Shown: positions 2,561-40,707 of the stretch, piece by piece
Layout: each line of letters begins with the position of its first letter
Numbering within the stretch: position 1 is the stretch's first letter
Assembly (NCBI GenBank): GCA_008632985.1
Contig: QPGO01000210.1
Span: forward strand, 76,365 to 117,071
Length of the DNA stretch: 40,707 nt
Source: Psammoneis japonica
Taxonomy: Eukaryota
Direction of reading: 5' to 3'
The notes under the pieces: generated by a model
Database searches by the model: none
What the model saw: the letters and a program-made list of their open reading frames with translations, nothing else
What the model was told of the DNA's origin: nothing
Made by a program: the position numbers and the translations under genes

Positions 2561-4620
2561 CTGATTGCTTTGAAGAAGCCATGACCTTGGGCTGTCTGGC
2601 TGGGGAAGCAAGTGCTGCGGGTGTGCATGCTTTTTTTGTGCATGTGTCCTGTTCTCATTTCTCAGTGATCTTCAGATTTTTCTCTGTCTTTTCATCAAGT
2701 CATTTCAGTGGCTTGTCTCTTTTGCAAAACAAGTCTTTTCAATGACTTGTTGCATGTGTCTGGGCTTGGTTTGCATTCCGCACAATTCTGTGAGATGTCC
2801 AAGAGAGCAGCTCCAAGGGACCTGTTCTGTCTCATCTCACAACTCAAGCATCTGGGTGGTTGAGCCTCATTTCACTCACAATTGGCCTCTGAGGACAATT
2901 CATTTTTCATTTCCATGTGTGCTTCCTCCACATTGTCAAACAGCACAAGTGTTTCAGTCAGTTTTGTGGACAAGCAGTGAAACAGGGTCCAAAGTTGATG
3001 CCATCGTGTGGGCTGAGTTTCGCTTCTTCTCTCACGTGTCTTCTTGAACTCAAGTGCCGCCAACGAATGTTTTGCACAATCTGTTGTGCACAATTTGTGC
3101 TCACATGTTCAAACAAAACACCACTTGTGTCTTGTTCAAGAGCCAACTTGTGTGCAAGAATGCGTGCTTTGTGTTTTTTCTTTTGGGCATCGCAGCAGCT
3201 GCAAATCGCTCATCAGAAAACTGAGCTCTTGTCTCACAGCTCCACCCCATTTGGTGATTGATGGCTTGGTGCATCATCAGTTGTGAATGCATGGGTGCAC
3301 ACATGAGACCTTTCCATGTGCCACAACAACACATTTGAAAATTGTCATGTCTCAGCTGTTGAAAATGGTGCCTCAAGTTCAGACAACGCGTTTCATGCTA
3401 AAAGGGTCATTTTTTTTCGTGCAAACACACACCCAAGTCTGGAACAAGTCTCAAGTGGAGAGTGGAAGGAGCACTTGCTTGAAAAGGTGCCCTTGTTTTT
3501 GCCACTCACAGCAAAGCAGCTGCCCACACCAGCGTTGGCAACACAGTCTGTGCGCACATTGTGGGGAAGTGGGGCCAAAGGAGGGCACACAAGAGGAGAG
3601 AGCTGCCAGGGGGTGGCAACCTTTGCGGCTTCCACTTGCCAATCATTTTCACTGTGTGTCTTTTTTCCCACTTCTCACAGTGCAAAAGATTCATTCCAAA
3701 AAAAGTGCAAGACATCATCACCCGCTTCAGTCGTGACAACAGGTGGCCGTGTCGATTTTGTGCGGCGGCGATTGGCCCGGTTTTTTCATTCATTCGGAAC
3801 CCGGAACAAGGCATTCCAGTGCGTCAGGCTCGCTCGCGAGAGGACGCACAATGACGTCAGAAAGATCAGATCGAATGAATCTTTCTGAGATTCTCGCGAA
3901 ACAAGCTCGCTCGCACGCAGAAGTCTGCGGGCCCAATGTCGCACGGATTCCCACCTGCGTCTGGAACGCGTCTGCTCCCATTTCTTGTCTCCCAGTCCTG
4001 GACAAACTCTCCCTCACTTGCTGGCAAATCAAGTGCTCTGTTGTGTGCAGTGATCTTTCTGTTGTTTCATTTCTTTGAGGTTTGAACGAGGTTTTCCACT
4101 TGATGAGCGACAGCCTGTGGTTTGGCACTCTTCCTTTGACTTCCTTTTGGCTTCCTTCATGGCTCTCATGTGAATTTTTCCCAAATGCAACTGTCCTCTG
4201 TGGTGGTGGTGTAACCAACGTGTGTGTCACCAGCAATGCCACATCAAACTCCAAGTGTTGTGTTGTGCTCTCTGCACCAACTTTTTCCGTCGGGCGTCTC
4301 CTCAGGGAGACGCCAGTTCAGGCCAATCGCGTGTGTTTCTGCCACATCTCCAAGCGGGGTGCACTGGAAGTGTGGGTCAGCTGGCGCTAGTGTTGCTGGG
4401 CAAAGGTGCAACAGCACTTAAAATTGGGTTTGTTTTTTTTTCCTCACCGACCACAGTGCGGCGTGATGTGCTGGTGCTCAGTTTCACGGCGTTCTTCTTT
4501 TTGCGTCATTCTTGCGCGAGTTCGCAGTGACGTCAGAAAGATCGGATCGGATGAATCTTTTGAGATTCCTCTCCCTCCGACCTCCGAGGCGACGCACGAC
4601 GCACGGCATCACACCATGAC
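2560..4620. repeat. TpA-depleted repeat-derived sequence, family not identified
   Basis: Same TpA-poor composition as the flanking retroelement; no recognisable protein motif; contains the 3852/4529 direct repeat. Confidence 0.5.
3852..4568 (+). repeat. Imperfect ~40-bp direct repeat (3852-3893 and 4529-4568)
   Basis: tgacgtcagaaagatcagatcgaatgaatctttctgagattc versus tgacgtcagaaagatcggatcggatgaatcttttgagattc; weaker similarity extends upstream (gcgtca...cgcgag). Confidence 0.85.
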
Positions 4621-16899: not shown

Positions 16900-17621
16900 A
16901 GTTAGCCGGGGTAGGGCTAGTTGGTCGCGCACGTTTGGGTTCGATGCAGCCGTGCAACTAGCCATACCCTGCAGGAAGAGCTAGCTGTTGGTGGCGCGCG
17001 AGCAGAAGCAACAAAGCAAAGAACACGGCGTGGGTCAAAACGTTGTAAAATGACGCAACAACAAGCAGCGAGAAGAAACCCAACTTGACCCATGAATACA
17101 GCGCATACATATTGTCCAACCACTTCAATAGTATCTCGTATTCCCAGCTTGTAGATGAGGGGACGGCGTTCGCGTTTCTCGCCATGGTGTTGTTGTGCGT
17201 TATCGTGTTGTTTGCGCGCGAAGACCACGGGATCTATTTATCCGATAATAACTCCTTTTTGGTAATAGTAGATGTTTTACTGTATTCAATCTGAAAATAT
17301 TTTGAGAAGCGCTTCGGGGCGACCCTGTTCGCACCGTTAAATAGAAATTTTTTTATCCAGATTCCAGAGTTCTTTCGGGGTGTTCTGTCAGACTTTTGAA
17401 TTGGTATATACATATATTAGAGGCCTTAGCAAAATCAATGATATGTAATAGCCTCAGAGACCAACATAAATTTATGTTCCATGTAGACCACGTAGATTGT
17501 GTACCGGCGGAAAATCCACGGCATGTCAATCACTCAGTAGTGATTCTACGTACATCCTACTTACACCTCACACACGTACACACACCTACACAGTCTAATA
17601 ACCGCGCACACGTGCGCGAGA
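16900..17621 (-). mobile_element. Short non-autonomous Helitron2-like element
   Basis: Shares both ends with the long element at 18297-26581 (about 80 bp at left, about 380 bp at right). 10-bp asymmetric inverted repeats tcgcgcacgt (16925-16934) / acgtgcgcga (17610-17619). On the minus strand it starts TC after host A, has a 5' hairpin cgcgcac-gt-gtgcgcg and a 3' hairpin tagcc...ggcta. Confidence 0.85.
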
Positions 17622-19181
17622 TAAACCAGAAATTTCAGAAGAATTACAACACGCCCAACGCCACACAACATGCACACACACAACGAACACGCCGCTAACC
17701 GATGTCAAGCATCATCAAAGACGTCGTCCGGAACTGACGACGACTGTTTCAGGAACCACTTACGAATGTCCATATAAAGCCAACTGGGAATGCTCTCACC
17801 CTTTTCATCTGAATCTGGTTTGATGAGCTGAATTGTGGAAGTGAGTTCATGCTGTCAGGAGTGGGAAAGACCCCCACTGTGGTGGCTCTTCGTCAACCCC
17901 ACTCTCATGCCGCTCGCTCTCGTGTGTCTTCAGAATAGCATGTTTATTTTTAAAAATGTCACCTCAATGGATTCACCTGGCAACTCCTGAGCAGAACTCG
18001 GCAAGGTCGATTTTGCCTCTGATGAATTCTGCAGAAGCATGCCCTGTGGATGTCCGGGATGAAATCTTCTTCAATTTGTCGCTGTTGCTAAAAGTATTTT
18101 AACATGCGCTCAACCACAGCATCATCAACAAGCATGCAAAATTCTTTTAGCAACTGACCGGCAGTTTTCAAGAACGTGGCCGCATCGGTTCTTTGCCATC
18201 GTCGTTTGTCGGCTTTTCTCGTGCTTCAGTGTGTGGGCGGGCGGGCAAAAACATGCAGTCGAACTAGTCAAGTTTCTGCGAACACCAATTTTATGAAGTT
18301 AGCCGGGGCACCGGCAGGGCTAGTTGGTCGCGCACGTTTGGGTTCGATGCAGCCGTGCAACTGGCCACACCTTGCAGGCAGAGCTGTGATGTTGATTGCA
18401 CCATGTGATTTTCGGACATGAGAAGAATGTGTTCTTTAGAATGCTTCATCTTCAGAGCAATGAATGCATCTCCTTCATCATCCGACACTTGAGCAAGGAT
18501 GTCACATCATGTCACGGAGCGGGTCACGGAGTTGCTCACCAAAGGATTTTCCCGACCCCTCCTCCCCTCCCCCACTCCCCACGGCCAGACGCAGTCTCAG
18601 TGCATCATGCACTCAGATTCATCATGTCCTGAAGATTGCAAACGACATCATCATCACCCAACCCTTTCAGATTTGAATGAAAACACAAATCGCATCAAAC
18701 ATGTAAGATTTGCCTTTGCTTGAAATGCGCCGCACGCATTTTGTCAAAACACAGCAGTGCGCAGTTGGGAGCGCAGCACCAGTGCTCACATCAGGAGCAC
18801 AGGCGCTTGCACAGCATCGCAGTGAGCAACATGCACTTTGCTGCGTGCTGGAAATGGCCGTTTCTCCCACCACCACCACAAACATCATCAACACGGAGCA
18901 CCTCCAACAATGGCCGTCGCCGCTGAAAACGAGCATTGTCGATGTTGCATTGATGCCATTGGACCTGCTGTTGTCAACACAAAAACTGATTCACAATGAA
19001 AACAAATGAGAACATTCTCTTGAGCCGAAATGTGTTTCTTCAATCTCACATTCTCAGCGAGTGAATCAAATCGCTCCACTGCATTTGACAGAATCTGTTG
19101 GTTCAATGCATTTTTTAGTTTTCTCCACTTCTTGTTCTCCTTTGATCTTTGACCGTATTTCCACAGGAAAATTTCACATCA

Positions 19182-19368
19182 TGCTGGGCGGCTCAAGTTG
19201 ACACCATTTCAAACGGGGCGGTTCAAGCAGGTGCTGCATCATGCAAGGCACGAGGCTGCTCAAGCGGATGCCAACACCTTGCTGGGCAGCTCAAGTGGAC
19301 ACCTGCACCTTGCTGGGTGACTCAAGCAGATGCCAACACCTCTCTGGGTGACTCAAGTGGGTGCCAAT
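19182..19368. repeat. 31-bp degenerate minisatellite inside the Helitron
   Basis: Units starting ctcaag at 19259, 19290, 19321 and 19352, plus two looser copies at 19182-19240. Confidence 0.85.
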
Positions 19369-19855
19369 GTTGAACATCACATGGAGTGGTCCAAGGGTGA
19401 GGAGCATTTTTCATTTTAAAATCCACAATCTGCCGCTTTTGGGAAAGTCCCGACACAAAGGGCAGACGAGGTTGCTCTCGTCTCCAACAATTACGAGCAA
19501 CTGTGCCAAGGCAGCTGACTGCAGCAGCGCCTCGGCATTTTTTTTCTGCAAGATGGCCTGCGAGAGCCAAGGTCCCCGGCGAGACTGAGAGTGGCACCTC
19601 CAAGGAAGGGGGTGCCACTCGACGTGCCATGACCCGAATCTCAGTTGGACAGGGTTCGCCTGCCCTCAAAGGTGGTGATTGGTTGTTTGCAAGGAATGCA
19701 GCAGGATGGAAGGATAAAACAGCTGGATTCAATTGATTTGCAGTGCAGAATGGTTGTCGAAAAGCTTGGATGGTCATGCGGAGTAGGACGTCTAGACGCC
19801 TCTCCTCCTGCAGACGCTTGTCCATTTTCTTGTGCTTGCACACCTTCTTACAAAG

Positions 19856-22800
19856 TCAATCTTGCACAATGCCATCAACCAATCCAATGTCTGAAAGGCT
19901 TTGGGCATGGGAAAAAGCAGTGCAGGTCAAACCATGCTCCTTCTCGTGGTTGGACAAATCGATGACAAAATGGGACTTGATGGTTTGGCCTTGAGCTTTC
20001 CAAACAGTCATCGCCCAGCAAAGCTTCAAGGGCAACACAGCATGAGCATGTTCATCACAGCCCGCATCATCTCGCTTTCGAGTGCACACAGCTGCAGTCA
20101 CAGGGTGAATTGGCACCCAACCTCGGCGACTGTCATTGTCGGGAAAAAACGATCCTCCACCGTAGTCTCTGCCGAAGTCAACCCACACAAACTTTGGAAG
20201 AGATGGAGCCAAGCCTGATTCGTCATGCACAATGTCCTTTGCTGTCTCAGTTGCTCCATTGCACAATCCCGCCGACTGAGCAACATTCATGGCAAGCATT
20301 GCTTGTGCTCCGACGCTGAGGTGCACCGAGTTCTCCAAGCCTTGAAAGGAATCGGCCGTCTTTTTCTTGCCGTCACCAGTGTTTTTAGCTTGCACCAGAG
20401 CAATGGGCTTGCCAAGCGTCTTGAGATTCTTGTTGTTGAATTCTTCCACTTCAGAATTGGTCGTGAACAGATGCGGCGTTCCANTCATTTTCAAACCCCG
20501 ACTCGCACCATTTGTAAAGACCCATGGAATGTCGTGAGCACGTGCATCGTGCCTTGACCCAGTCCGCTTCTGTACAATTTCCATCATGAAGACGCTCTGG
20601 GAAGCCACAGAACCAAACTGATTCGGGATCGTTGGGGTCGATGCGATTGTTTTTTGTCAGCTTGATGACTGTGTTGAACATTTGGCAGAGATTGCATCCG
20701 TTTCGATCATCATTGCTTGTAAACCCAGTCGCTTCCCACAAACAACGTCCTCCCACTGGTGGCAACTGTCCAGGATCACCAGCCAATGCCACAATGACTC
20801 CGCCAAATGGTTCGTTGACACCTTTGATTTCACGCAATCTCCGGTCAATGTGATGAAGCTCTCTTTGACGCAGCATCGAGAACTCATCAAGAATCAAAAG
20901 CTTGAGATTCGCAAACTTGTCTTGAGCTTCAGCGAGATTTTTGTTCGTGAGAGGACGATGACGTCCACCAGAGAGGGGTGTTCCCAGTCCTTCTTGGTGA
21001 GAGTGAACTGCAGATCTGCCAATGACCATCTCAGCCTTGCGCCATGAGAGCACAGCTGCTTGTCGGAAGTCCACGGTCCCAGAGAGTGGCAGTGACAGCA
21101 TCAACAGCAAATGATTTTCCTGTGCCTCCCATCCCAACAAGGAGAGTGCACTGTCCCTCACTCTCTCCAACAACAGCACTTGCAATTGCGTCGTGAGCCA
21201 GACGTTGTCGTTCATTGAGCGAGTCGAAAGAAACTTGACTCCTTGCAGCTCAATCGACGGGGTTGGACATGAGATGATCATGCTTTCGCTCCACTTCCTC
21301 GTCCCATCCATCATGTTCCAGATGGTCATGCTCGAGTTCTGAAAAATCATGATCCTCTGACCATTTGAGATTGCTTCCAGAAAGAGCTGATGCATCGTCC
21401 ATCTGCGCAGCATGCCCCACATCCATCCAAGAGTCTTGGCTTGCATCCGTTGAACCAGAATCCGAGTCGTCACCCATTGGCGCGTCAACGTTGGGCAAGC
21501 GCAAGCTCGATTCAATCTCGCGTTGAAGGAAACCAGGAATTTGTCGACCTTGTCACATCAGAAATGGAGCATGCTGGCTCCAAGCATGAATGATGTCGTC
21601 ATTGGATGCGTTGGCGCCACCCCAAGCAGATTCAAATGCACCACTCCATGGTTGATGCTTGATCAATGAGTGCTTGCAGTGCTTGACAAAGTCAGGACCG
21701 CCAGGAGAACTTGGGACTCGAGGTGCAAAAACAGCTGCCGTGTTGGGTTTCTGGTGGCAGCGGATTTTCTTCTTGTGCTTTCCCGACTTGCCAACATAGA
21801 ATCCAGCGGCAAATTCTTGAAGAGTGAGGTCTCTAAGTCCTGGCTCAAAGGCTGCAAAAACTGAATGATCGGCCCAGGCTTCTTGGTTGAGGTGTGCAGC
21901 GCATGCATCAACGACCGTCGGCATTGCAGCAGAATCCACTCCTGCATCGGCGCCAACGTCTCCATCAGAAGGATTGTCCGACTCCTCCAGGTCAACTTGC
22001 CCAGTGGCATTTTCGAGATTGACAGTTACAAAGGTGTGGGAGCAAGAGACAAGAGGCAAACTTAAAATGAGATGGCACGTCTCCTGTTTGGAAACCATTC
22101 ACTCGCCTGTTTGGGGCAACCATTTTGATTCATTCAAAGAATGAACAACACACTGTGAGCAGAAATGCAAAGTCACACAAGGATCAAATCAAAACCAGAC
22201 GTGCCCAAAAGCTTGGCCATTGCACTCTTCAACACTGCCTGTGCACTGCATCCATCATCGATTTTCTGCTCCACTGTTTTGTGAACCATCGCGGTCATTC
22301 GCATGGACGGCATGCTGGATTCAGACTTGGAGACGCACTTGGTCATGTGCTCAATGACCTCACCGGCATCTGCAACAAGTCGGAAATCAATGTTTGCTCT
22401 CCAAACCTCGAATGTTGGGACGCAATGACTGTTGATCCACTTGTCGTTGCGTGCCAATGCCATCTCCATTCTTGAGACTTTTTGGGTCTCTCCAGCTTTG
22501 TTCTTGACAAGCTTCTCCACAACAACCAGACGAGAAATTCTTGAAAGCTGCAAAGGACATCCAAAGCGACAGTCCAAAATGTGTTCATCTGCTTTTGCCT
22601 TGTCGCACTTGGACTTGTTGCGGTCACAGCAGCCGCCGGGCTTGCACACATGCCATTCCACCACGTCACATAGATTGCAGCAGTTGCCAGTGCGGTCATC
22701 TCTCGTCATCTCTGGCACATCTTGAGGCCTGTCATTGCTTGGGTGCACTCCATCCACCCCGGGACAAAACTTGGTGGACTCTAGCCGCTCGTCGGATGCA

Positions 22801-24860
22801 GCATCTTCTGGAGGGCTGGGGTGAAACGCAGAGATGAGAAAATCATTGAAGGCAACAACCACGTCTTGTGCCTCCTTTCCATCTCTGACAGCTTGTGGCA
22901 TCTGTTCAAAAGAAAGCTCCTCGTCATCTTTGCATTCAAACTCCTCTTCATGTGCATCCAGTTCACGATCCTCCTTGGCAAAATCGTCATCCTCATCCAG
23001 CAGACCTTGTTGGCGGAGTTTCAAAGCAGCCAATCTTCCTTCCAAAACAACCTGTGACAGGTCTGTCAGCCCCGGGTCAGCCTCTGGTCGCAAACATCCA
23101 TGAACATGAGCGGCACCGCGGGCTTGGTGTTCGATCCGAAACCAAGTCCAGCTTGTTTTCATCCCATTCTTTCCAAAGAAGCTCTTCATCATCAAATTGA
23201 CCCGTTCTTGAAAGAAGGCGTCAACAATGTGAGGGTTGTCTTGGACAGCCTTGCAACGACAGGCGGCTTTCTCTTCTTCTGAAAACTCTTCACAGTTGCA
23301 GTTGCAAACCAACAAGGCGTGAAGGTCCGCCCAGTGGTTGTCGGCGGCTGAAAAAGCAAACCACAATGCAGGCATTCCGCACTGGTCTGTCAGAGCCTCG
23401 AGCTCCTTCTTCTTCTTGTAGAAATGCGAATCGCTGCCTGGGATGTTCGCGTTGAACTTTTGAATGTTGGAAACAAGTTCTTTGAAGCGCGGCCCGTTCT
23501 CTTGCACTGTGTGCTTCAGCTCTTCCTCGGTGAGCTGTGCGTCTTCTGGGCACTTTCGCAGGCACACTTTCTTTTGATCCTGGTGACGATGCCGAGTGGC
23601 AGCATTCTCGGCCCAATGCATCCACCGATTGTGGCGTGCAAACGGATGCACCCACTCTCCCTCCTTGTCATCAAAACAGGCATGCTGCAGCAAGTGCTTG
23701 TTCGCCTCCGCCATGGTGACATTGATGCGGCGATCGTCATGCGTGACATCCCCGTCGCCGCACGGGAAGAGAGCAGGAAAGGCCAGGCTTTGAAGCCGAG
23801 GAAAGGTGCAGTCATTGATGGGCTGGCCATTGTTTTCAATCTCTTGGACGACGGAAGTAGGATCAAATCGATCACGGAGAGTGCCAGAAATTTCGGCGCA
23901 CTGCTGACCTGGATGAGGGCCAGATGGTGGATGCCCAGACGCGACATCCTCGCCCTCCTGTCCACTTGCCCCGCCTTGTTCTGGACCACTTGCAGCAGCG
24001 TCTTGGTCTTCACTTGCATCGCCTGCTGGCTCACTCTCATCTGAAATGGAAGACACAGAACCCGCAACTGATCCGTCCTGCAGAAGCAACAAAAGATTGT
24101 CCAGGTTGATGTCGATGTCACAACAGCCTGGATGATTTTCCTTCAGCCAGACAAGCCATTCTGTGACATTGTCGTGGCAAACCTGAAAGTCTTTGCATCC
24201 ATTTGGTGTCCTTTGGTTTGGCTTTCGAAGGACAAAAACTGGAAAGTCGGAAACCTTGAGTGGAAGGCTCGCAATGACTTCACTCACATCCTTTTCAAGA
24301 TTCACGACGGATCCTTTGCACCCGACTTGCCCGGACTGAAGGCGACAGCACTTCATGACAGTGTGAGTGCGAGCAATGAGCATCTCTTCAACCTCAGATG
24401 GCTCGGGCAGGTGTGCAGGACGTCCCTTGGCGTAGATGTCCATGTCGTTTGCTGCAGAGAAACGACTCAAGCCATGCTCCTTGACATCCTTGGAACAAGC
24501 AAGGCACTGCCGCGGGTCGGACTTGTTCATGTTCATGTTGAACCAGCGCTTCTTGCAAGTGGCACACCGTGTCATTTCTGTCTTTGAAATTCCGTCCACA
24601 AATTCATCTTGACAAGCTTTCATCTGTGGACCAGTCAAACAAGAGTGAGAACCATTGAAGAGGAAAGTGACGACAATCAACATCATGTCTCTTACATCGG
24701 GGTGGTCTTCTAGATTGACACCTGGATGCCAGCCATCCCTGCAAGCTTCAAAACATTCATCAAGAGAAGAGGGTGGAACTGGAGGGTTGTCAGAAGAGGA
24801 TGAAGCAGATGACGACGAGGAGGAGGAAGATGACGAGGATGAGGAAGGGTCGTCGTCCAT
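19856..24860 (-). pseudogene. Helitron Rep (HUH endonuclease)-PIF1-like helicase, inactivated; probable intron 22107-22204
   Basis: Rep motifs: FPALFPCG, PALWFAFSAAD, RIEHQARGAAHVHG (HUH), CRFGCP, WRANIDFR, EHMTKCVSKSE (YxxKY position). Helicase motifs: GMGGTGKS near 21110-21145, LILDEFSM, PFGG..LAGDPGQLPPV, GLCNG, WAMTVWKAQGQT. In-frame stops and frameshifts present. Confidence 0.95.
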
Positions 24861-25244
24861 CGATTGCCTTTTTCATCTGTTTGCTTGTTTTGTTGCTTGG
24901 CGGTTTTGTGGTCTTGCTTCTGCCATTGACACCCCTTTGAAAAATCTGGCTTCTGCATTTGATTGGCGTTGTTGAGCCCTTGCCGTTTCTTGCCATTCTT
25001 GAGTCGACAGGTGTTCTCGTGCTCGTGCTTGAGATTGCTCCTTCCTTCCACTCGCAACTCTGTGATTGTTGGTGGAGGAATCAATGGCAGCCTGCAGATC
25101 TGGATGAGCAAGAACAGATAAAGTAGAACCGTGAGTAAAAAAATTCGACAAAGTAGAACCAACAAAATGGAAACACTTGCGACTCGAAGTGCGCTGTCGT
25201 TTCGCATCTCTGTCAGAAGAATCATCAACAGCGCCGGTCACTCA

Positions 25245-26102
25245 TCAAGTTCTGTGATGAAACTCAGGATCAGTGATGTTTGAAACCTCCGAATCTTGCG
25301 TTGACGAAATCTCAATGTGATCGACTGGAAGAGAAAACTCGGGATGTTTGGCGCGACTCTGGAAAGTGTCCTCTCGGCTGCGCTTCCTGACGTCTTTTAC
25401 GGCTCGATCCTCCGCTCGGCGTTCAGCACGTCTCTTTCGGCTTCGTTCTCTTCTGCGCTGTGCAGAGGTTGAAAATGAATCGGGGGTTCCAAATGCTGCA
25501 TCCTGCGATCCATGAGAATGGTGCGCATGCGGCGATCCAAAACATGCATGTGGCGGCATGTGATGGGGAGCAGGAGGTGGACGAAAGCAAGCAGCCGACA
25601 TCCAATGATTACAGGGAGGAGACAAAAAAGCTTGAGCCGGAGCACACTGGCATCCAAGATTGGGCACACCCGGCGGCATCATGAAAGCATCGCAGGGGCG
25701 AGAGTTCCTCACATCGAGAGAGCCATGAACGACAGGAGGAGAAAAAGCAACACCATTTCGAATGCACTCGTTCCACTCATCAATCAAAGAAGCTTGAGAT
25801 TTGGCGGAATGGGTCGATGCGGGCGATGCAGGTTCTGGAGCTTCCGGTGGAACGTCGGGTCCGGCGGAAAAGAATGCCTTCTCAACAAGCTCTTGCTCCT
25901 TTGGATCCGTTGTCGCTTGTCCCACCAGACGACGAGTGGGCATGGGAAAGGAAGCAAAAGAAAAGAGGAGGATGAGTGTAGATGCAAGAGGTGCAATCTT
26001 CATCGTGTCGAAAGCGATGTCGAGACGAGACGATGAGTTTTGTGTTTGGCGGGATTTTGTTTTCCACGGGAAAAGTGAGTGGCGAGACCTCGTTTCAATC
26101 AA
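25245..26102 (-). pseudogene. Accessory ORF (or upstream exon) of the Helitron, function unknown
   Basis: 285-aa open frame upstream of and co-oriented with Rep-helicase; basic cluster QRRRERSRKRRAERR; Pro/His/Cys-rich segment. Long ORFs arise easily in TpA-free DNA, so support is limited. Confidence 0.4.
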
Positions 26103-26671
26103 GAGCTCGCAGGCGCGGAAGTTAGGTGCGACTATTCGTGGTTGAATATTTATTGAAATTGACGTAGAATCCTACTGAAATCAAGTTGAATTCTATTTTA
26201 CCGATAGTGACTCTGTTTTGGTAATAGTAGATGTTTTACTATATAAAAACTGTAGATATTTTGAGAAGCGCTTCGGGGAAACTCTGTTCGGACCGTTAAA
26301 TAGAAATTTTTTTTATTCAGATTCCAGAGTTCTTTCGGGGTGTTCTGTAAGATTTTTGAAATGGTATATGTATATATTAGAGACATAAGCAAATTCAATG
26401 ATATGTAATAGCCTCAGAGACCGACATAAATTTATCTTCCATGTAGACCGCGTAGATTGTGTACCGGCCGAAAATCCACCGCCTGTCAACTCATCAGTAG
26501 TAATTCTACGTATATTCTACATACACCTCACACACGTACACACACCTACACAGTCTAATAACCGCGCACACGTGCGCGAGATTAATTTTTTCAATTCTAT
26601 ATAAAGTTGATTATGGAACGGTTTCTACGGGATGTTGTGCCCATAGATTCCCACGAGCTCGAAATAATGTA

Positions 26672-34521: not shown

Positions 34522-35116
34522 GGCGGTAATGTTTAAGTAACAACTTGAAACTGTAGCAGACTGTAGCGACCGGGTGTCTGCTGCGTTGCTTTGTTGCTTT
34601 GCTGTGTTTCTTTCCCGGGTGGTGCGCTCGTGTTGTTGTCTGTGTTGTTTGTTGTCTGGCTGTGTTGTGTTGATTTGCGCGAATCGAAAAAGCTCGCGAA
34701 GAACTCTTGCCGCATAGTCTACGCATGCCATCATGAAGGTTGCATTACTGCGAAATACCTGACAATTGTCATAATGAAAAGTGGCAAATTTCTTTTACAT
34801 TTTTTTTCAGTCAACCTCAACCAAAGTTCAAAACAAAAGTTGCGCGCTTCGGTTCGCTCTCGCACACTTGTGCGTGTGGCTGGTGCTCTGACTTCTCATG
34901 TTGTTGGCAGCACAGCTCAAATGATTGCTTCCATCAAACGAGCAATGGTCATCATTGCAACGAGGACATCAACATGGAAGCTGCGGCACAGCAGACTGCA
35001 CGACGTGCAGTGCAGAATGACCCTGCGGATCAAAGGGCGGCTGCCCGCATTGCCGTTGGGGCTCACAGGGAGCTCTGAGTGACACGTGCACGGCTCCCCG
35101 ACCCACCACGTGGTGG

Positions 35117-36150
35117 ATGCTGCTGAGGGCATCCAGCTTGGTTCCGCGAAGTGGAGCTGCAGCGATTCTTCAATGGCAAAGACACCAGCACATCAATGCG
35201 ATCCATTGCTCATTGGTGCAACCAACTGGATCCATGCTGAATGACTGGCAACAGCGATCGAACAAACTTGGTGGGCGTGTTGATCAGCTCTCAATGTGTC
35301 TGCACCTCATGGGTTGCGCCTGCATGCCAACGAAGATGAAACCACGGCATTGTTCATTGCGGGTCAAGGCGAAAAGATCTGTGGATGAGCCATCATTTCC
35401 AAGTGAGTGAAGGAGATGAAACTCAACTTGAAAAGAGGGTCCACTGGGGCATCCCAGGCAATGTCACCCATCAACACAGCCAAACGCAAAATGTTCTGGA
35501 GCATGCCCCCACCCCTTGGTTTTCATCTTGTTGTGAGAAGGCATCTTGCCGACTTTGATGAGTTTGGCATCATGTCAAACCAAGTCAATCGAAAACATGG
35601 GCATGCTTTTGTTGGTTTGCGTGTCAAAAAACTTGGGCACTGTGTCCGTGGTGTGAAGTTTGCCATGATTTTGTGTGTTGAGCCAGGTGACCCCTGACTT
35701 CCTCCCCACATGTGCATGGCAGCGTGCAGCGGCCTTGACGGTGGACAAGTGTGAGGCAAGTTGGAGGTGCAGACCAATTTGTGTTTGCTGATTTTGTCAA
35801 CCAGGTGCTGTCTTCAATCAAGGCGAACCCATTGCTGGTCTGGATGACCGCCAAACTTTGATGTGGGACAGTCTCAATTCTCGTCTCACTCCACTTGTGA
35901 CCCAAACAGTGGAAAGTCGCAACACTCCAGGACATCACTTTGAAATTGTCCAGAGACCGCCCCACCAGCCAGCCCAAGGACAGTCCTGTGGAGCATGCCA
36001 TTTGCCAGATCATGAACCGGCTCAAGGACCAGCTTTTTTCCATCAACAGCCTCCACAATCTGGAGCAACAAATCTGCGCAGTTGCCACCCAAGAGTTGCA
36101 CGGCATTGACAATGCCTTTCACAACTGTGGCTGCATTTGGGGCTGGTGCA
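35117..36150 (+). mobile_element. Degenerate Tc1/IS630-like DDE transposase remnant
   Basis: LADFDEFG (first D), LMWDSL (second D), and IVQRPPHQP + DSPVEHAI (compare the PxYSPDLNPIE motif) in order across frameshifts. Confidence 0.7.
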
Positions 36151-39150
36151 ATGGAACAAAACAGACAGAGGTCAACTCCAGACTTTGACTCGTGTCGACA
36201 GCTTGTGCCACTGCCAACATCATGAGCAAGAAACAAGCAGTGCTGTTTTTCCATCAAGTCCACAGCCCATTGGCACATGCAGCACCTGCAGTCATGATGA
36301 TTCTCTTGACTGCAGTGCAACTCAGACAACCCAAATGGATGACAATTGACTTTTCACCCAGCTCAGCTCAAGGCAACACGTGGCAATGTCAAGCGCAATT
36401 TCCATGATGTCTTGCAAACCGATTTCCTGCATGGCATCACCCTCAGCAATGGAGACCATTTCATCACCTTGAGTGAGGTTGCGACAGAGGGCGCGGAGCT
36501 TTTTTCTCTCTGCAAAATGCAAAAAATGGGTGGAATCCAAGATGCCCGGGAAACGGAAGAACAGACAATGAGTGAGAACACAGATTGATTGCAAATGAAA
36601 CGCTGACAAAACAAAAGAGGAGCAAGCTCACCCGGATTTGCATCACACAAGTTGGCCATGTTGCGAAGGGTTGCATCCATGACTCATTTGGCCATGCTTT
36701 TCTTCAGAGTTTGGCGCACAGGAGTTGCCAAGGCCTCGTCCGAAGCCTCCGGACTGTTGTCACGCATTTCAATGACCTGCTCTTGAGGTGGCAATTGAGC
36801 AACCAAGGGCCCTTTTCCACTGGAACCTTGTGCTGCAATCAAAGGATCCAGCCTGCTGTGGCAAAGACTGCTGTTGGTGGCACTGCCGCTGGCGCCTCCA
36901 GAGCTGTTGCACTTGAGCTGCCTTGCTTCACTCACATGCTCACAAGCATTGTCAATGTGCGGCACTGCTCTGTCAGACATGGAAGCAAATCCCGCAACAC
37001 CAAGCCCTTCCAAGGTGACATTGCACTGGCTTTTGCTCTCATCGCTGCCTTGACTGGCACACATCATGCCGTTCCTGATGTTGTCACCAGTGAGACCTTG
37101 TGGCATTTCAAGCTGCCTCTGTGGTGCAGCCCCAGCAGCCTGGTTCTCAAAATCTTTTGCGTGCTTTTCAAGGCAGACATCCCTCATGATCTTGGTTCTC
37201 TGGATGCCGAGAAATGGAAATCACAGTGGGCCGCTCCAAAAAACACAAGCACATGAACCCACAGATCTGTGTCTTTTTTACATGGATTTTTTTTAGCTGT
37301 CCACCTGGGCTGCCAATCTTGATCTTTGTCAGAGCTTGAAAGGGCAAATGGAACCCTGCATTTTTTCATTCAATGCCCAATGACGCCACCATGACATTCA
37401 GCACCCATGATGGCTCAAGTTTTGTCACCTTGTGGCAACAAGAAGAACCTTTGTAGAACGGGCGCAATGCATGTGATCATGAGGGTGTTGTCTCAGCATC
37501 ATGAAGCACTTGTGATTGGCTTGTGTTTGATTTTAGACACAGCAAAACCATGCAGCAGATTTTGCAAACAGCGGCAATGGCCGCCCTGTTGTTGCGGAAA
37601 AGGGACAGGTGACCTTTCCATTGAATCCTCCACATTTGTTTTGGCCACGTGAGGTTCCATCATCGCGCTCGCCTTGGCTCTGGAGGCCTTGCAGCTTGCA
37701 TTTGTGACGACACAACAACAGTGCAATTTTTTGCATGACAAACAATGCACCGTGTTCTTCACATGAGTTGCCACAGCTCATCTCATCTTTTGCACTGTGG
37801 GTCATTGCTCAATCAACATTGTCAACTGCATTGAGTGGCGTGATGATTGATTGATGAGAAGTTGCCACAAAAGGGATTCCAAAGCACCGCTGCATTTCAC
37901 GCCCATTTTTGTTGTTGAGATTCCTTCTTGTTTGTGTCACAAGGCACAAAATCTGGCAGACGTGCCTTCGCGTCTTCCAGATTCATGCAAAAAAGACACA
38001 AATCCATGTGCTCATGACCCGATGATTCCGCGCAACACAAATTTGTGTTTTCATGTTTTCCGGAGTGACCCAGCATCAGCAGAGCCACAATGAAAAGAAT
38101 TGGCAAACAACACCACCTTCAATGAACTTGCCTTGCACATTGTGTGGCTTGTGTTGCATGGGCAGCAACAAATGGCACAACACACTGCTTCCTTTCAATG
38201 CGGTGAAGCCGATGTCATTCTTTCAACATGCTTGCTGGTTTTGCTCATGGTCTCTGTTCAACCATTTGCTTGTCAACCCATCTTTTCAATGGCGCCAGGC
38301 ACCCACTCCTTTGAATCTTTCATGCTTCCATGATGCTCAGCTGTGTCCTTGCCCACGTCTCTGATCCAACACAACCTTGCTGTGCCCTCTTTCAGCAGAC
38401 CCTTGACAACTTCCCCACAGCAAGGTCCTCCAGTGATTGTCTCTTTGCCTTCATCCAGCAGCTGTTGCCACAATCCACTACATGAGTTGTGCATTTGGGT
38501 TCTTGATGCTTTCCAACTGGCCTTTCTGGCTTCTGTGTTGGGATTTCATGGCTTGCCAATTGGTGCGTGCTTGCTGGTCTCACCAACCCCCAAACTCACT
38601 GCATGGATTGCAAACACAGCCATTTTCTTCACTGCTGCAGACAATGGCAACATTTTCATGTGTTGCTCACTGCATCTTCATGGGTTTTGCAGACTTGGCG
38701 CCCTTCCAGCCTCTTGTCTTGTGCCTCACTGTGAGTCTAGAAGGCAGTGGACATTCAGGGGATTGGGGTTGGCAGCTGAAGGCCTTCATGTGGAGGGCAT
38801 CAACAATGATGGGAGCAATGCACATTTTTGCAAGATGAGTCACAGTGCAAAGGATGAATCTCTGCTTTCTGTTGCTGGGGTGGGCATGTTGGTGACTCTG
38901 AACAAGACAAAAACTGTGCGCATGGGTGACTTTAGAGAGCAGCTGCTTTGGTCCAGGGCACTGCCACCACCTCAGCAGGACTGTGCGCTGATGACATGAC
39001 ACAGCAACGCTGCCAAATGGGAGCAACAACCACACACAAATGCATCCAATGTGCAGCACACACACAAACATGTGTGCTCATGAGTTGCTGCTGTGACAGC
39101 AGCCAGGAAAACAGGGAACAAATCTGCGTGTGTGACTGTGCCCATTTGTC
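36150..39150. repeat. TpA-depleted nested repeat remnants, families not identified
   Basis: TpA nearly absent and CpG low; diverged inverted repeats at 37225-37290/37980-38075 and 37785-37806/38835-38858. Confidence 0.55.
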
Positions 39151-39154
39151 CACC

Positions 39155-39252
39155 TTTGGCAAGTTTTGCAAGTTTGTCAACTTTGGCAATTTTGGCAAGT
39201 TTGGTGACTTTGGTGACTTTGGCAAGTTTGCTGAGTTTGGCGAATTGGCAAG
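39155..39252. repeat. 9-bp tandem repeat (tttggYRav), about 11 units
   Basis: tttggcaag ttttgcaag tttgtcaac tttggcaat tttggcaag tttggtgac tttggtgac tttggcaag tttgctgag tttggcgaa ttggcaag. Confidence 0.92.
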
Positions 39253-39268
39253 CAATGGGAGCATCTCA

Positions 39269-40360
39269 ATGTTTGTCAAGAAACAGATTGCTGGTGGCAA
39301 CATGGACACTTCAAATTGGTCAGGAACTTGGGAGGAATGGGCAAAAAAGGCGGCAAAAAGGCAAATTGACAATTGCAGAAACACGGTGTGTTCGGCTGAT
39401 GGGGCGGAGGCAATGGCCTGCAAGCCAAGTGACCAATGTGTGTGATTCGAGAGTTGCGCGCATCTCACAAGAAGATGGCGGTGATGCTTCATCCATGTGG
39501 GCGTTGTCGCTGACAAAGAGGGAAAGGAAAAAGAAAAGAAACTCAAGGCGGCAGTCAGGAGGAAAAAGCAAGGCAGGAAAAAGTCAAGCCGGAACAAGAA
39601 TGAAGAGAATGACATCCCATTTGTGCCGACATGGGATCCGTTTAGCCTGGACACCATCGCCGGCAGCAAACGGAGGAACAAGCAGGCATGCAAGTGGTTC
39701 TGTGATCACATCCTGCCTCAAACCATTCAAAAGCAGGCACGGAGCAGCACCATCAAAACTGGGAATGCACAGGTCTCACAGTTGTTTGCGGTCAGTGACA
39801 AAGCTTTGGCGCTGTTGGCCATGGAGAATTGTTGGCAGGTGTGGGCATGCAGGAACAAGGAGGAGGCGGTGGAAGAATTGGGTGAGGAAATGGAGCCCGA
39901 AGAAACAAGGCCTGCCCCTTGGCACATGAAGCCAAAGAAACAATGAGTGTCTTGGGGAGACGACGGAATCAATCGGTTCAACGATTTGTGCCAAGAGGTG
40001 ACGAAAGATGGAGACTCCAAGGAGGGAAAGGAGTTTGAAAAGTGGCATGCGGAGATCAAGAAAAGCGAGCACAAGAAGTCTGGAGAAGCAAAAAAGAAGA
40101 AGAAGAAAGCACCGACCGGTGATGCGGAGAAGGTGAAGGCAATGAACAGCCCAATGGCGGAGAGCCGCAGGGACAACAACAGCAACGACAATGAGCAGGA
40201 GGAAGGCGCAAAAGGCAAAACAAATGACGGAGGAGACGAGTCCGATGGAGACGAGTCCGATGATGATCGTTGGCTCAGCTCAAGAGAGTTGCAGCAAGAA
40301 AATGTGTGCACAGTCAACACAGCACTCGGTCATTGCACTGCAGACGTAACAAGGGATTGA
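39269..40360 (+). pseudogene. Degenerate transposon-associated ORF of unknown function
   Basis: Collinear fragments (WEEWAKKAAKRQIDNCRN; WFCDHILP; VSDKALALLAMENCW; WGDDGINRFNDLCQEV; acidic/basic tail) interrupted by TGA stops and frameshifts; no Tyr; lies between two 9-bp arrays. Confidence 0.5.
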
Positions 40361-40657
40361 CTTGACCGATGAAGTGCTTTTCTTGTTTAAAATGATGTTT
40401 GTGAAAATTGACAAACCAAGGATTGTGCGGCAATGCAATCACGCATTGGCATGTGGCAACAAGGCGGAGGCAGAAACAGTGATGTGGACACAGTGAAAAA
40501 TGGCACACATGATTCTTGACAAGTCATTGCAACATTGGTGCCAAACTTGCAACCGGAGGTTGGCCTGTCATCACACCACAACAATTTTTTGCAACATTTC
40601 GACAAATTGTCATCACGCAAATCTGCACATTTTTGACATTTCATGCACTCTGATGAA

Positions 40658-40707
40658 CTTTGGCAACTTTGGTTTGGCAACTTTGGCAATTTGGTGAGTT
40701 TGGCAAC
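40658..40707. repeat. Second array of the 9-bp tttggcaac repeat, cut by the window end
   Basis: tttggcaac tttgg tttggcaac tttggcaa tttggtgag tttggcaac. Confidence 0.85.

Follow-up and report, generated by a model that had tools for sequence, protein, structure and literature searches.

Near-saturating loss of TpA, including both catalytic tyrosine codons, in a dead Helitron copy

The window considered here (the whole stretch of DNA analysed, 40,707 nucleotides) most probably contains a dead Helitron copy in which TpA has changed to TpG on either strand, almost to saturation, in a process restricted to mobile or foreign DNA blocks. A probability of about 0.8 is assigned to this reading. Both catalytic tyrosines of the Rep nuclease are replaced, one by His and the other by Cys. 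Tyr is the sole amino acid with TpA in all its codons. Enzymes acting through a tyrosine nucleophile are therefore obligate casualties of such a process, and two of the three stop codons vanish.

The catalytic motif and the RepHel gene

The gene lies on the minus strand, with the following features.

22173-24872, minus strand: P0001, an 899-aa stop-to-stop open frame, with an N-terminal DUF6570 region and the Helitron_like_N Rep nuclease
23100..23108, minus strand: HUH motif H589-V-H591, intact
22347..22349, minus strand: codon CAC of His842, where the Rep YxxxY motif has its first catalytic Tyr
22335..22337, minus strand: codon TGC of Cys846, column of the second catalytic Tyr
19757..22107, minus strand: rest of RepHel with the PIF1-like helicase, supported by Pfam and by tblastn of 13 relatives

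The minus strand at 22352-22326 reads gag cac atg acc aag tgc gtc tcc aag (E-H-M-T-K-C-V-S-K), in frame within P0001. An earlier note on this DNA had read the same codons and had placed CAC (22349-22347) and TGC (22337-22335) exactly; only its overall span of 22333-22351 is slightly narrower than the nine codons. It had also assigned them to the catalytic motif of the Rep nuclease, and the relatives bear this out. Tyr occupies the columns of His842 and Cys846 in all 24 aligned relatives with a residue there, and the two columns read Y..Y in all 20 metagenome loci spanning the motif. By tblastn, the first of them is Tyr in 13/13 relatives. The motif consensus of the relatives is YMTKYVTKxE, with the i/i+4 spacing of Y727 and Y731 in Helraiser. 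His842 is classed as a single TA to CA step and Cys846 as a single TA to TG step, in agreement with the claim that each catalytic Tyr was lost by one transition at TpA.

Because both Tyr codons (TAY) contain TpA, Tyr became Cys or His. Cleavage of single-stranded DNA by Helraiser requires its second Tyr, Y731 (PMC4778049). With both catalytic Tyr gone, the covalent 5'-phosphotyrosine intermediate is not possible. The two catalytic Tyr (Y-x-x-x-Y) that a Helitron requires downstream of HUH are thus absent from this copy, which is a member of the RepHel group by descent and not a functional member. The HUH motif itself is preserved, with H589 and H591 invariant in alignments A1, A3 and A4; His codons are devoid of TpA.

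The identity of the gene is secured by several domains. P0001 matches Pfam Helitron_like_N (PF14214) at residues 411-592 (E 2.2e-24, 87.1 bits versus a cut-off of 28.9) and DUF6570 (E 3.4e-21). The remainder of RepHel matches PIF1 (PF05970, E 5.2e-11) and Pif1_2B (PF21530, E 3.7e-6), carries the Walker A motif GMGGTGKSF and is colinear in its helicase with full-length relatives. This remainder is split over three frames. In total, TGA interrupts the copy in frame at four positions (22101, 21555, 21252 and 19858), and the frame changes three times, once at the sole N of the window (20484). The amino acid composition of P0001 is extreme: Tyr amounts to 0.22%, the lowest value among the 158 proteins compared (1.12-6.25% in the others, median 3.28%), and Cys to 4.67%, the highest. 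Only two Tyr codons are left in P0001, with their TpA at 24433 and 23419.

Structural comparison gives a weaker picture. Searches of PDB sequences with P0001 (phmmer) and with the profiles of A1 and A4, a Rep-only profile included, gave no match to a Helitron Rep. The profile of A3 matches PIF1 helicases and Helraiser 7lcc_A (E 1.8e-45), with its best stretch in the helicase. Since only this helicase part reached 7lcc_A, the Tyr columns are not alignable residue by residue to Y727 and Y731. An AlphaFold2 model of P0001 built on A4 has a mean pLDDT of 46; the top Foldseek match of this low-confidence model is again 7lcc_A, albeit weak (E 0.02 over 126 columns). Correspondence to the catalytic residues of Helraiser is thus weakly suggested, by motif spacing and the weak fold match.

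TpA-poor blocks in the window

TpA odds fall to 0.00-0.16 in three blocks of the window, versus 0.4-0.9 in the host genes between them. The blocks and their surroundings are as follows.

1..4600: block A, TpA-free in character (11 TpA), with CpG nearly gone in 1-3000 (odds 0.09)
17233..17624, plus strand: a dispersed repeat of 390 bp, left copy, TpA intact (odds 1.06)
17625..18296: flank in which TpA is depleted to an intermediate degree (odds 0.30; 14 TpA in 672 bp), past the region where the Helitron apparently has its 3' end
18297..26120: block B, TpA-poor, containing the Helitron (35 TpA in 7824 bp, measured in three segments)
26192..26582, plus strand: the same 390-bp repeat, right copy at 90% identity to the left one, TpA intact (odds 1.12)
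34797..40707: block C, TpA-free in character (10 TpA, none in 34797-37278), without Pfam match

Altogether, the three blocks contain 53 TpA in 18,189 bp versus 1003 in the remaining 21,859 bp of the window. TAA and TAG together number 18, 38 and 16 in the three blocks, counted on both strands, versus 264, 367 and 298 for TGA. Low TpA odds (0.00-0.16) coincide with CA/TG odds of 1.4-2.1 over 1-4000, 18001-25000 and 35001-40707. Positions 25001-26000 have TpA odds of 0.12, yet CA and TG odds of just 1.18 and 1.30. The segments of block B have TpA odds of 0.07-0.09, CA/TG odds of 1.2-1.8 and CpG odds of 0.65-0.98. A nearby 5-oxoprolinase gene has TpA odds of 0.59.

The right-hand edge of depletion in block B is sharp, between 25979 and 26123. 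At the left, the summed contig depth steps at ~18296, with loose ends at 18313 and 18317. Helitrons begin with TC and end with CTRR preceded by a hairpin, and they insert at AT. Near the depth step and the loose ends, a minus-strand palindrome GCCGG...CCGGC is followed by CTAA at 18302-18299, the next base not being T. A hairpin near the 3' end is also described in PMC4778049. The 5' end of the Helitron, looked for in the sequence, was not located. The 390-bp repeat adjoining block B has a very high summed contig depth, a measure not taken here as copy number, and its TpA is untouched.

The designation of mobile DNA is established for block B only and is weakly indicated for block A. Pfam scans of 45 and 75 open frames, taken from blocks A and C, both ends of the Helitron block and the host genes, gave no convincing family in A or C. 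The sole hint of a family is a weak RT_RNaseH_2 match in block A at 2080-2742, plus strand (E 4e-4, below the cut-off). Still weaker sub-threshold matches to COX17 and FAM60A in these two blocks are taken for chance.

Mutation spectrum and its origin

Conserved columns of the protein give the direction of change. Among 437 such columns, 343 are unchanged and 94 changed. The changes comprise 14 TA to TG, 13 TA to CA, 7 CG to CA and 5 CG to TG, together with two other A:T to G:C transitions, three other G:C to A:T, 29 transversions and 21 multi-step changes. A TpA context is thus found in 27 of the 29 single-step A:T to G:C changes. The 17 conserved-Tyr columns across RepHel are now His in seven cases, Cys in six, Phe in three and Tyr in one. 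A count of this kind had been put forward as a check in the earlier note, and 13 of the 17 columns hold His or Cys. Putting back TA in silico, also suggested there, is no test, since a profile score must rise by construction when the consensus Tyr takes the place of His or Cys. In a leave-one-out control, His or Cys occurs in 8 of 387 Tyr-consensus cells of 25 relatives, versus 9 of 11 in P0001. The loss of Tyr in P0001 is well beyond chance.

The mutator of TA to CA or TG that the note had proposed is upheld by these counts together with the TpA odds over the element. Its further contention, that the change started from TA and not from CG, stands as regards TpA specificity and is too strong otherwise, since CpG decay made 12 of the 94 changes on the same element, including two Arg to TGA stops. 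Arg columns have turned into His, Cys, Gln, Trp or TGA. This second, parallel process, CpG to TpG or CpA, is probably due to deamination of 5-methylcytosine. The idea of death without a stop codon fares similarly: TA to CA or TG cannot make stops, but the copy does carry its frame changes and TGA stops. Since the TpA process makes no stops and erases TAA and TAG, a frame of 899 aa has stayed open.

Two simple accounts are rejected. CpG decay alone explains neither the loss of TpA nor the change of Tyr to His or Cys. Low TpA inherited from a donor is contradicted by the derived state of the protein columns and by the related metagenome loci gathered with alignment A1, none of which (0/38) has TpA odds below 0.33.

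By analogy with the Bigelowiella natans system described below, the agent would be a host enzyme that deaminates adenine after T in DNA (A to I, read as G). The same pattern could arise by another chemistry, without any adenine deaminase. In silenced chromatin, TpA might carry a modified base that mispairs, or TpA repair might be error-prone. Modified thymine or N6-methyladenine, mispairing at replication, are examples of such bases. Strand symmetry is what a palindromic TpA mark would give, and it is observed both at the conserved columns (13 TA to CA versus 14 TA to TG) and in block B as a whole (736 CA versus 673 TG). CpG decay in the same blocks also suggests DNA modification and silencing, and the deaminase of the B. 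natans preprint is a candidate by homology only. On the other side stand the surviving TpAs. TAT accounts for 5 of their 106 strand contexts versus 30% in host DNA, and survival differs by context, with block over host counts of 32/389 for TAG versus 5/609 for TAT. Such a neighbour preference fits an enzyme reading one strand, although a sequence-specific modifying enzyme is compatible with it as well. On balance, a modified base or faulty repair is an unlikely origin. The near-absence of TAT among the survivors is a testable clue to the enzyme.

It is distinctly less probable that editing occurred while the element was single-stranded during rolling-circle transposition, much as APOBEC acts against retroviral cDNA, so that the mutations would be older than each insertion. 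Transposition of Helitrons does use a single-stranded DNA intermediate (PMC4778049), and the sharp right-hand edge of depletion agrees with such a mode. Nonetheless, only one strand is transferred, yet TA to CA and TA to TG are equally common. The same state is also found in two blocks without Helitron similarity, one of them with the weak reverse-transcriptase RNase H hint, and the 672-bp flank past the apparent 3' end is half depleted. Moreover, the B. natans preprint reports mutation in situ in integrated DNA (bioRxiv 10.64898/2026.01.13.699255).

Other copies of the Helitron family

The family is multi-copy. In total, 955 contigs from a sequencing run match the element at 90-100% identity; this run may be the assembly's own source, so that the contigs do not amount to independent confirmation. 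They differ by 407 transitions and 74 transversions, and adjacent swaps of CA and TG are found among the 40 differences listed out of 482. Taken alone, these swaps cannot separate TA from CG ancestry, but two are polarised by protein columns. At position 20227 this copy has His and another has Cys, the residue being Tyr in 8/11 relatives. At position 20756 GTG (Val) in this copy corresponds to GCA (Ala) in another, the residue being Val in 13/13 relatives. The Tyr codon retained at 24433 is Cys in other copies. Separate copies have thus been hit independently.

These contigs also bear on the suspicion of a sequencing or assembly artefact, in which TpA would be systematically miscalled in some regions. 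The assembly may derive from the sole run with this stretch, for which no library type is recorded, and the window includes the N at 20484. The listing of runs with the stretch includes none of RNA. Against miscalling, 262 contigs reproduce the region at an identity of at least 99%, one of them, 350 bases long, with no difference at all; copies differ in product at one site (20227); and the adjacent host genes and the TpA-rich repeat read normally. TpA hypermutation in B. natans was, moreover, measured with Illumina data, according to the preprint (bioRxiv 10.64898/2026.01.13.699255). An artefact is therefore highly improbable.

Proposed course of events and significance

The preferred reading, a TpA-directed process acting on a dead Helitron, can be put as a sequence of events. 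The locus would be a dead copy of a multi-copy Helitron, with RepHel on the minus strand at about 19.7-24.9 kb. The family would have spread in the genome first, and the mutational process would have come after. TpA would then have changed to TpG on either strand, read as TA to TG or TA to CA, until nearly saturated and only within blocks of mobile or foreign DNA. Tyr codons (TAY) would have become TGY (Cys) or CAY (His), those of the two catalytic Tyr of the HUH nuclease included, and the nuclease would have lost the ability to form its covalent 5'-phosphotyrosine intermediate. CpG decay to TpG or CpA would have added changes of Arg to His, Cys, Gln or Trp and the Arg to TGA stops.

Editing of RNA offers a different route to the same product. 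ADARs have a 3' G preference. Hyperediting of double-stranded RNA from A to I by an ADAR-type enzyme, fixed in the genome through reverse transcription, agrees with the weak RNase H hint in block A, but it can be given next to no weight, as Helitrons do not pass through an RNA copy, non-coding ends and the flank are affected as well, and the better survival of TAG than of TAT goes against that preference. A preferred 5' U and editing of both duplex strands, points in favour of ADARs, are mentioned in the Discussion of the B. natans preprint (bioRxiv 10.64898/2026.01.13.699255). As the end state of the process on a DNA transposon, the locus represents a setting in which an origin in RNA editing is all but excluded.

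If the TpA-directed process is a defence, chromatin or RNA cues presumably direct it to foreign DNA, copy number alone not being the guide. It is tempting to go further and to propose a saturating 'reverse RIP', that is a DNA-level, TpA-directed A to G defence that acts in situ on both strands of every mobile class and does not choose its targets by copy number, the last point being drawn from the untouched neighbouring repeat of far higher contig depth. This extended proposal is tentative, with chances slightly below even. Every mobile class refers here to the Helitron, the retroelement remnant and the unrecognisable block. If the proposal is true, long 'ghost' reading frames would remain while genes are disabled by missense, and every enzyme with a tyrosine nucleophile would be killed, including HUH Reps, the tyrosine recombinases of Crypton and DIRS elements and viral topoisomerases.

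There are practical consequences as well. In blocks of this kind, gene prediction will report long open frames even where the gene is dead, P0001 with its 899 aa being an example, and the elements will be under-detected in homology searches; neither block A nor block C gave a convincing family match.

Comparison with known systems

CpG decay by cytosine methylation resembles the present case in the depletion of CpG (odds 0.09-0.98) and the excess of TpG and CpA, but it can neither remove TpA nor convert Tyr to His or Cys.

Helraiser (PMC4778049; PDB 7lcc) shares with the gene described here an N-terminal region, an HUH nuclease and a PIF1-like SF1 helicase, and its HUH motif with two Tyr four residues apart is found in the relatives. 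This copy differs from it: His and Cys stand for the two Tyr, and the gene carries frame changes and four TGA stops. The distance from HUH to Tyr is 251 aa here versus 134 in Helraiser (H593/H595 to Y727/Y731; PMC4778049), and in the Rep domain the divergence is too great to permit a match to 7lcc by sequence.

RIP in ascomycete fungi also produces block-wise, near-saturating transitions in transposons beside intact genes, and the partly depleted flank resembles RIP leakage. Its polarity is the opposite: RIP changes CpA to TpA, which raises TpA and creates stops, whereas here TpA is destroyed and TAA and TAG are erased. With TpA nearly absent and CpA and TpG in excess, classical RIP is rejected. 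A RIP-style dependence on duplication is not evident either, the neighbouring repeat of high contig depth being untouched.

The closest precedent is found in B. natans. TpA-targeted A:T to G:C hypermutation is a newly described form of genome defence in eukaryotes, and a literature search for it returned one preprint only. The idea of a TpA mutator is thus not new. According to this 2026 preprint (bioRxiv 10.64898/2026.01.13.699255), integrated viral DNA of B. natans undergoes hypermutation of TpA to CpA or TpG. In mutation-accumulation lines, 230 of 231 mutations were A to G or T to C, all at TpA and in integrated viral regions. Coding sequences low in TpA are enriched in transposon Pfams, and an ADAT2-like candidate enzyme is proposed. 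The present window is alike in having TpA as exclusive target, CpA and TpG as products, local blocks beside normal host DNA and an association with foreign or mobile DNA. The cluster thresholds of the preprint are a Rho TpA of at most 0.43 and a Rho CpA+TpG of at least 1.52. With the latter approximated by the mean of the CA and TG odds, all 1-kb windows wholly inside blocks A and C lie within these thresholds, whereas about half of the block B windows fall short for CpA+TpG.

The differences lie in the target, the extent and the consequences. The target here is a Helitron, a term with no mention in the main text of the preprint, where 'tyrosine' and 'stop codon' are likewise absent. TpA makes up ~0.3% of dinucleotides, near saturation, versus 3.3% in B. 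natans, within its NCLDV region. The locus adds independent hits in different copies and, if the window is not from B. natans, places the system in a second lineage.

The catalytic motif of the Helitron Rep

P0001, the Rep part of a dead Helitron RepHel gene, has His842 and Cys846 where relatives have two catalytic tyrosines. The minus strand at 22352-22326 reads gag cac atg acc aag tgc gtc tcc aag (E-H-M-T-K-C-V-S-K), exactly as the earlier note had read it.

22173-24872, minus strand: P0001, stop-to-stop open frame of 899 aa containing both replaced codons
22349-22347, minus strand: His codon (CAC), in frame within P0001
22337-22335, minus strand: Cys codon (TGC), in frame within P0001

P0001 matches the Pfam families Helitron_like_N (residues 411-592, E 2.2e-24) and DUF6570 (E 3.4e-21), and PIF1 helicase and Pif1_2B domains follow in the frames downstream, which makes the locus a Helitron RepHel gene. 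A word-based homologue search gave eight relatives with 35-44% identity. A full HMMER search with P0001 reached 2935 proteins at E <= 0.001, and 25 relatives were picked from the best 150 of these on length and on coverage of the query's C-terminal part. In their alignment, every relative with a residue at positions 842 and 846 has Tyr there (24/24), within the consensus YMTKYVTKxE. Among 38 related loci in metagenome contigs, the motif is covered in 20 and reads Y-x-x-x-Y in all 20. The replaced residues are thus the Rep catalytic tyrosine positions, as had been proposed. Upstream, H589 and H591 (HUH) are intact and invariant in the alignments.

The two columns share the i/i+4 spacing of Y727/Y731 in Helraiser, as given in the available text of PMC4778049. 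Profiles, model and Foldseek gave no residue-level correspondence of the P0001 Tyr columns to the solved Helraiser structure: a Rep-only profile had no match in the PDB, a full-length profile reached 7lcc_A with the helicase, not Rep, as its best stretch, and the poor structure model (mean pLDDT 46) had 7lcc_A as a weak top Foldseek match (E 0.02).

Lesions and tyrosine loss across RepHel

Followed by tblastn of relatives, RepHel falls into four frame pieces on the minus strand (24872-22173, 22107-21082, 21038-20493 and 20500-19757), with four in-frame stops, every one TGA. The Walker A motif of the helicase is intact. The window's single N, at 20484, coincides with one of the frame changes, in the helicase; this break may be an assembly artefact, because the base is missing from a contig of another copy. 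With its frame pieces, TGA stops and lost Tyr nucleophiles, the copy is, judged by its sequence, dead several times over. In Helraiser, double Tyr mutation abolishes single-stranded DNA cleavage, as does Y731F alone (PMC4778049, available text). Tyr loss would by itself be enough to kill the RepHel copy; the claim that it inactivates the enzyme without a stop codon holds in this sense, but the four TGA codons mean that it is not the sole lesion.

Tyrosine makes up 0.22% of P0001, the lowest value of 158 proteins compared (others 1.12-6.25%), and Cys 4.67%, the highest. At the 11 columns where 60% or more of the relatives have Tyr (26-sequence alignment), P0001 has C 6, H 3, F 2 and Y 0; in a leave-one-out control with the 25 relatives, 387 cells at Tyr-consensus columns include Y 309, F 39, H 6 and C 2. 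When the whole broken RepHel is read through tblastn of 13 full-length relatives, its 17 conserved-Tyr columns hold H 7, C 6, F 3 and Y 1. The count suggested by the earlier note, conserved-Tyr columns now His or Cys, is therefore 9/11 in P0001 against 8/387 cells in relatives, and 13/17 over the whole RepHel. The replacements at 842 and 846 are part of a systematic tyrosine loss. One of the 157 relatives, P0019 (486 aa), is low in Tyr (1.44%) and high in Cys (3.91%) and His (4.12%), and could belong to a Helitron of other origin in which TpA has been partly mutated.

Polarity and context of the changes

The 437 conserved columns comprise 343 unchanged and 94 changed. The latter were classed by the single nucleotide step that would turn a codon for the consensus residue into the window codon, with the window's neighbouring bases.

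Table. Changed conserved columns of RepHel, by class
TA>TG: 14
TA>CA: 13
CG>CA: 7
CG>TG: 5
Other A:T>G:C transitions: 2
Other G:C>A:T transitions: 3
Transversions: 29
Multi-step: 21

TpA is the context of 27/29 single-step A:T>G:C changes, which bears out the core idea of a TA->CA/TG mutator. Both strands are affected equally, and Tyr>His/Cys is joined by Ile>Val/Met, Thr>Ala, Val>Ala and Leu>Pro among these changes. Derivation from TA rather than CG, also claimed at first reading, is right for these 27 changes and incomplete for the gene: CpG decay is, by these codon comparisons, a second, lesser source, to which two Arg>TGA stops (22101 and 19858) are assigned.

TpA-depleted blocks and their edges

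Three blocks have TpA odds of 0.00-0.16, against 0.4-0.9 in the rest of the window.

1-4600: block A, 11 TpA
~18300-26120: block B, holding the Helitron
34797-40707: block C
17233-17624 and 26192-26582: 390-bp direct repeat flanking block B, 90% mutual identity
27602-28735, minus strand: ADP-ribosyltransferase-domain ORF (PF03496 E 2.5e-12, PF01129 E 3.6e-6), where TpA is normal, after block B and before block C

Pooled, the blocks have 53 TpA in 18,189 bp, the remainder of the window 1003 in 21,859 bp. CA and TG are in excess within the blocks (odds 1.2-2.1). On both strands, TAA+TAG number 18/38/16 in blocks A/B/C versus 264/367/298 for TGA; because TGA is nearly the sole remaining stop, long open frames are numerous in all six frames. 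Such spurious frames would lead gene finders to over-call genes.

Within-window comparison found no DNA similarity between the blocks. The one family hint in block A is a sub-threshold RT_RNaseH_2 match (2080-2742, plus strand). Its CpG odds are 0.09 in 1-3000 and 0.70 in 3001-4600; CpG being nearly gone from the first part and not from the second suggests two elements or two ages. Block A ends ~45 bp ahead of the 5-oxoprolinase open frame. Block C has zero TpA over 2482 bp (34797-37278) and CpG odds of 0.42-0.46, and its open frames of at least 70 aa match no Pfam family, bar one sub-threshold match taken for chance. The host genes between blocks encode 5-oxoprolinase, a cytochrome-b5-reductase-like protein, an LRR protein, a PAP2 protein and the ADP-ribosyltransferase-domain ORF; the two measured have ordinary TpA odds (0.54-0.59).

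The right edge of block B is sharp, with a final sparse TpA at 25979 and dense TpA again from 26123. On the left, the odds rise from 0.09 (18297-19321) through 0.30 (17625-18296) to 1.06 in the repeat. The half-depleted 17625-18296, which separates the Helitron 3' region from the left repeat, could reflect spread of the process past the element or less-mutated older sequence. A palindrome, GCCGG...CCGGC, followed by CTAA (18299-18320, minus strand), near a contig-depth jump and loose ends at 18313/18317, may mark the 3' end of the Helitron. Positions 18313-18385 recur as a 73-bp copy at 16910-16982 (93% identity). The repeat copies differ by 20 transitions and 22 transversions and are untouched by the TpA process (the right copy has odds of 1.12).

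Independent mutation of other copies

Other copies were compared through contigs of one DNA run, which is possibly the assembly's own source and so not independent support for base calls. The 955 matching contigs (262 at >=99% identity, 296 at 95-99%, 397 at 90-95%) show 407 transitions and 74 transversions relative to the window; the Helitron family is therefore multi-copy. Of the differences (40 + 442), the best-supported 40 were examined individually. Block B holds 33, among them 12 forming six adjacent CA<>TG swaps, 4 TA<>CA and 7 CG<>TG or CG<>CA.

Protein columns polarise two swaps. At 20227, His in the window copy is Cys in another, and Tyr in 8/11 relatives; at 20756, GTG (Val) is GCA (Ala) in another copy, and Val in 13/13 relatives. 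The TpA at 24433, in one of two Tyr codons remaining in P0001, has given Cys in other copies. The same ancestral TpA was thus struck independently in different copies after their separation, which points to mutation in place rather than an inherited state.

Mechanism and targeting

Collectively, the process is TpA-specific, strand-symmetric A:T>G:C, block-confined, near-saturating and separate per copy, with CpG decay alongside. Editing of a single-stranded Helitron intermediate fits poorly with the symmetric hits on both strands and with unrelated blocks being affected too. RNA editing is opposed by the DNA-only life cycle of Helitrons. The preferred reading is that a host enzyme would deaminate adenine after T in DNA, probably aimed at silenced foreign DNA. 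Copy number alone is an unlikely trigger, because the 390-bp repeat is untouched despite a higher summed contig depth (1341-6593 versus 134-580 in the Helitron interior from ~19.3 kb; rough values, depth not being copy number); its short length may be relevant to its sparing.

Table. Trinucleotide contexts of TpA, blocks / host DNA (both strands pooled; small numbers; host DNA, rather than the ancestral element, serves as baseline)
TAA: 40 / 379
TAG: 32 / 389
TAC: 29 / 629
TAT: 5 / 609

Next to a surviving TpA, a 3' T or a 5' A is very rare: TAT accounts for 5/106 strand contexts in the blocks versus ~30% in host DNA. This bias suggests that the mutator may prefer a sequence longer than TpA itself, which could offer a clue to the enzyme.

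Comparison with known systems

The phenomenon is real in the window sequence and striking, and its kind has been reported once, very recently. A literature search on TpA hypermutation gave one relevant paper (bioRxiv 10.64898/2026.01.13.699255), its other matches being fungal RIP; a search on Helitrons and catalytic tyrosines gave fungal RIP papers only. Fungal RIP has a polarity opposite to that of the TpA process here. According to the available text of the preprint, 231/302 nuclear mutations in Bigelowiella natans mutation-accumulation lines fall within two integrated viral regions; 230/231 are A>G or T>C, each of them in a TpA. DDE and reverse-transcriptase Pfams are over-represented among low-TpA CDS, and an ADAT2-like deaminase is the proposed enzyme. 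That main text, as available, has zero mentions of Helitron, tyrosine or stop codon. Relative to it, the RepHel locus adds a DNA transposon as a new target class, seen at its end state, in which tyrosine nucleophiles are obligately lost and stop codons are spared or erased.
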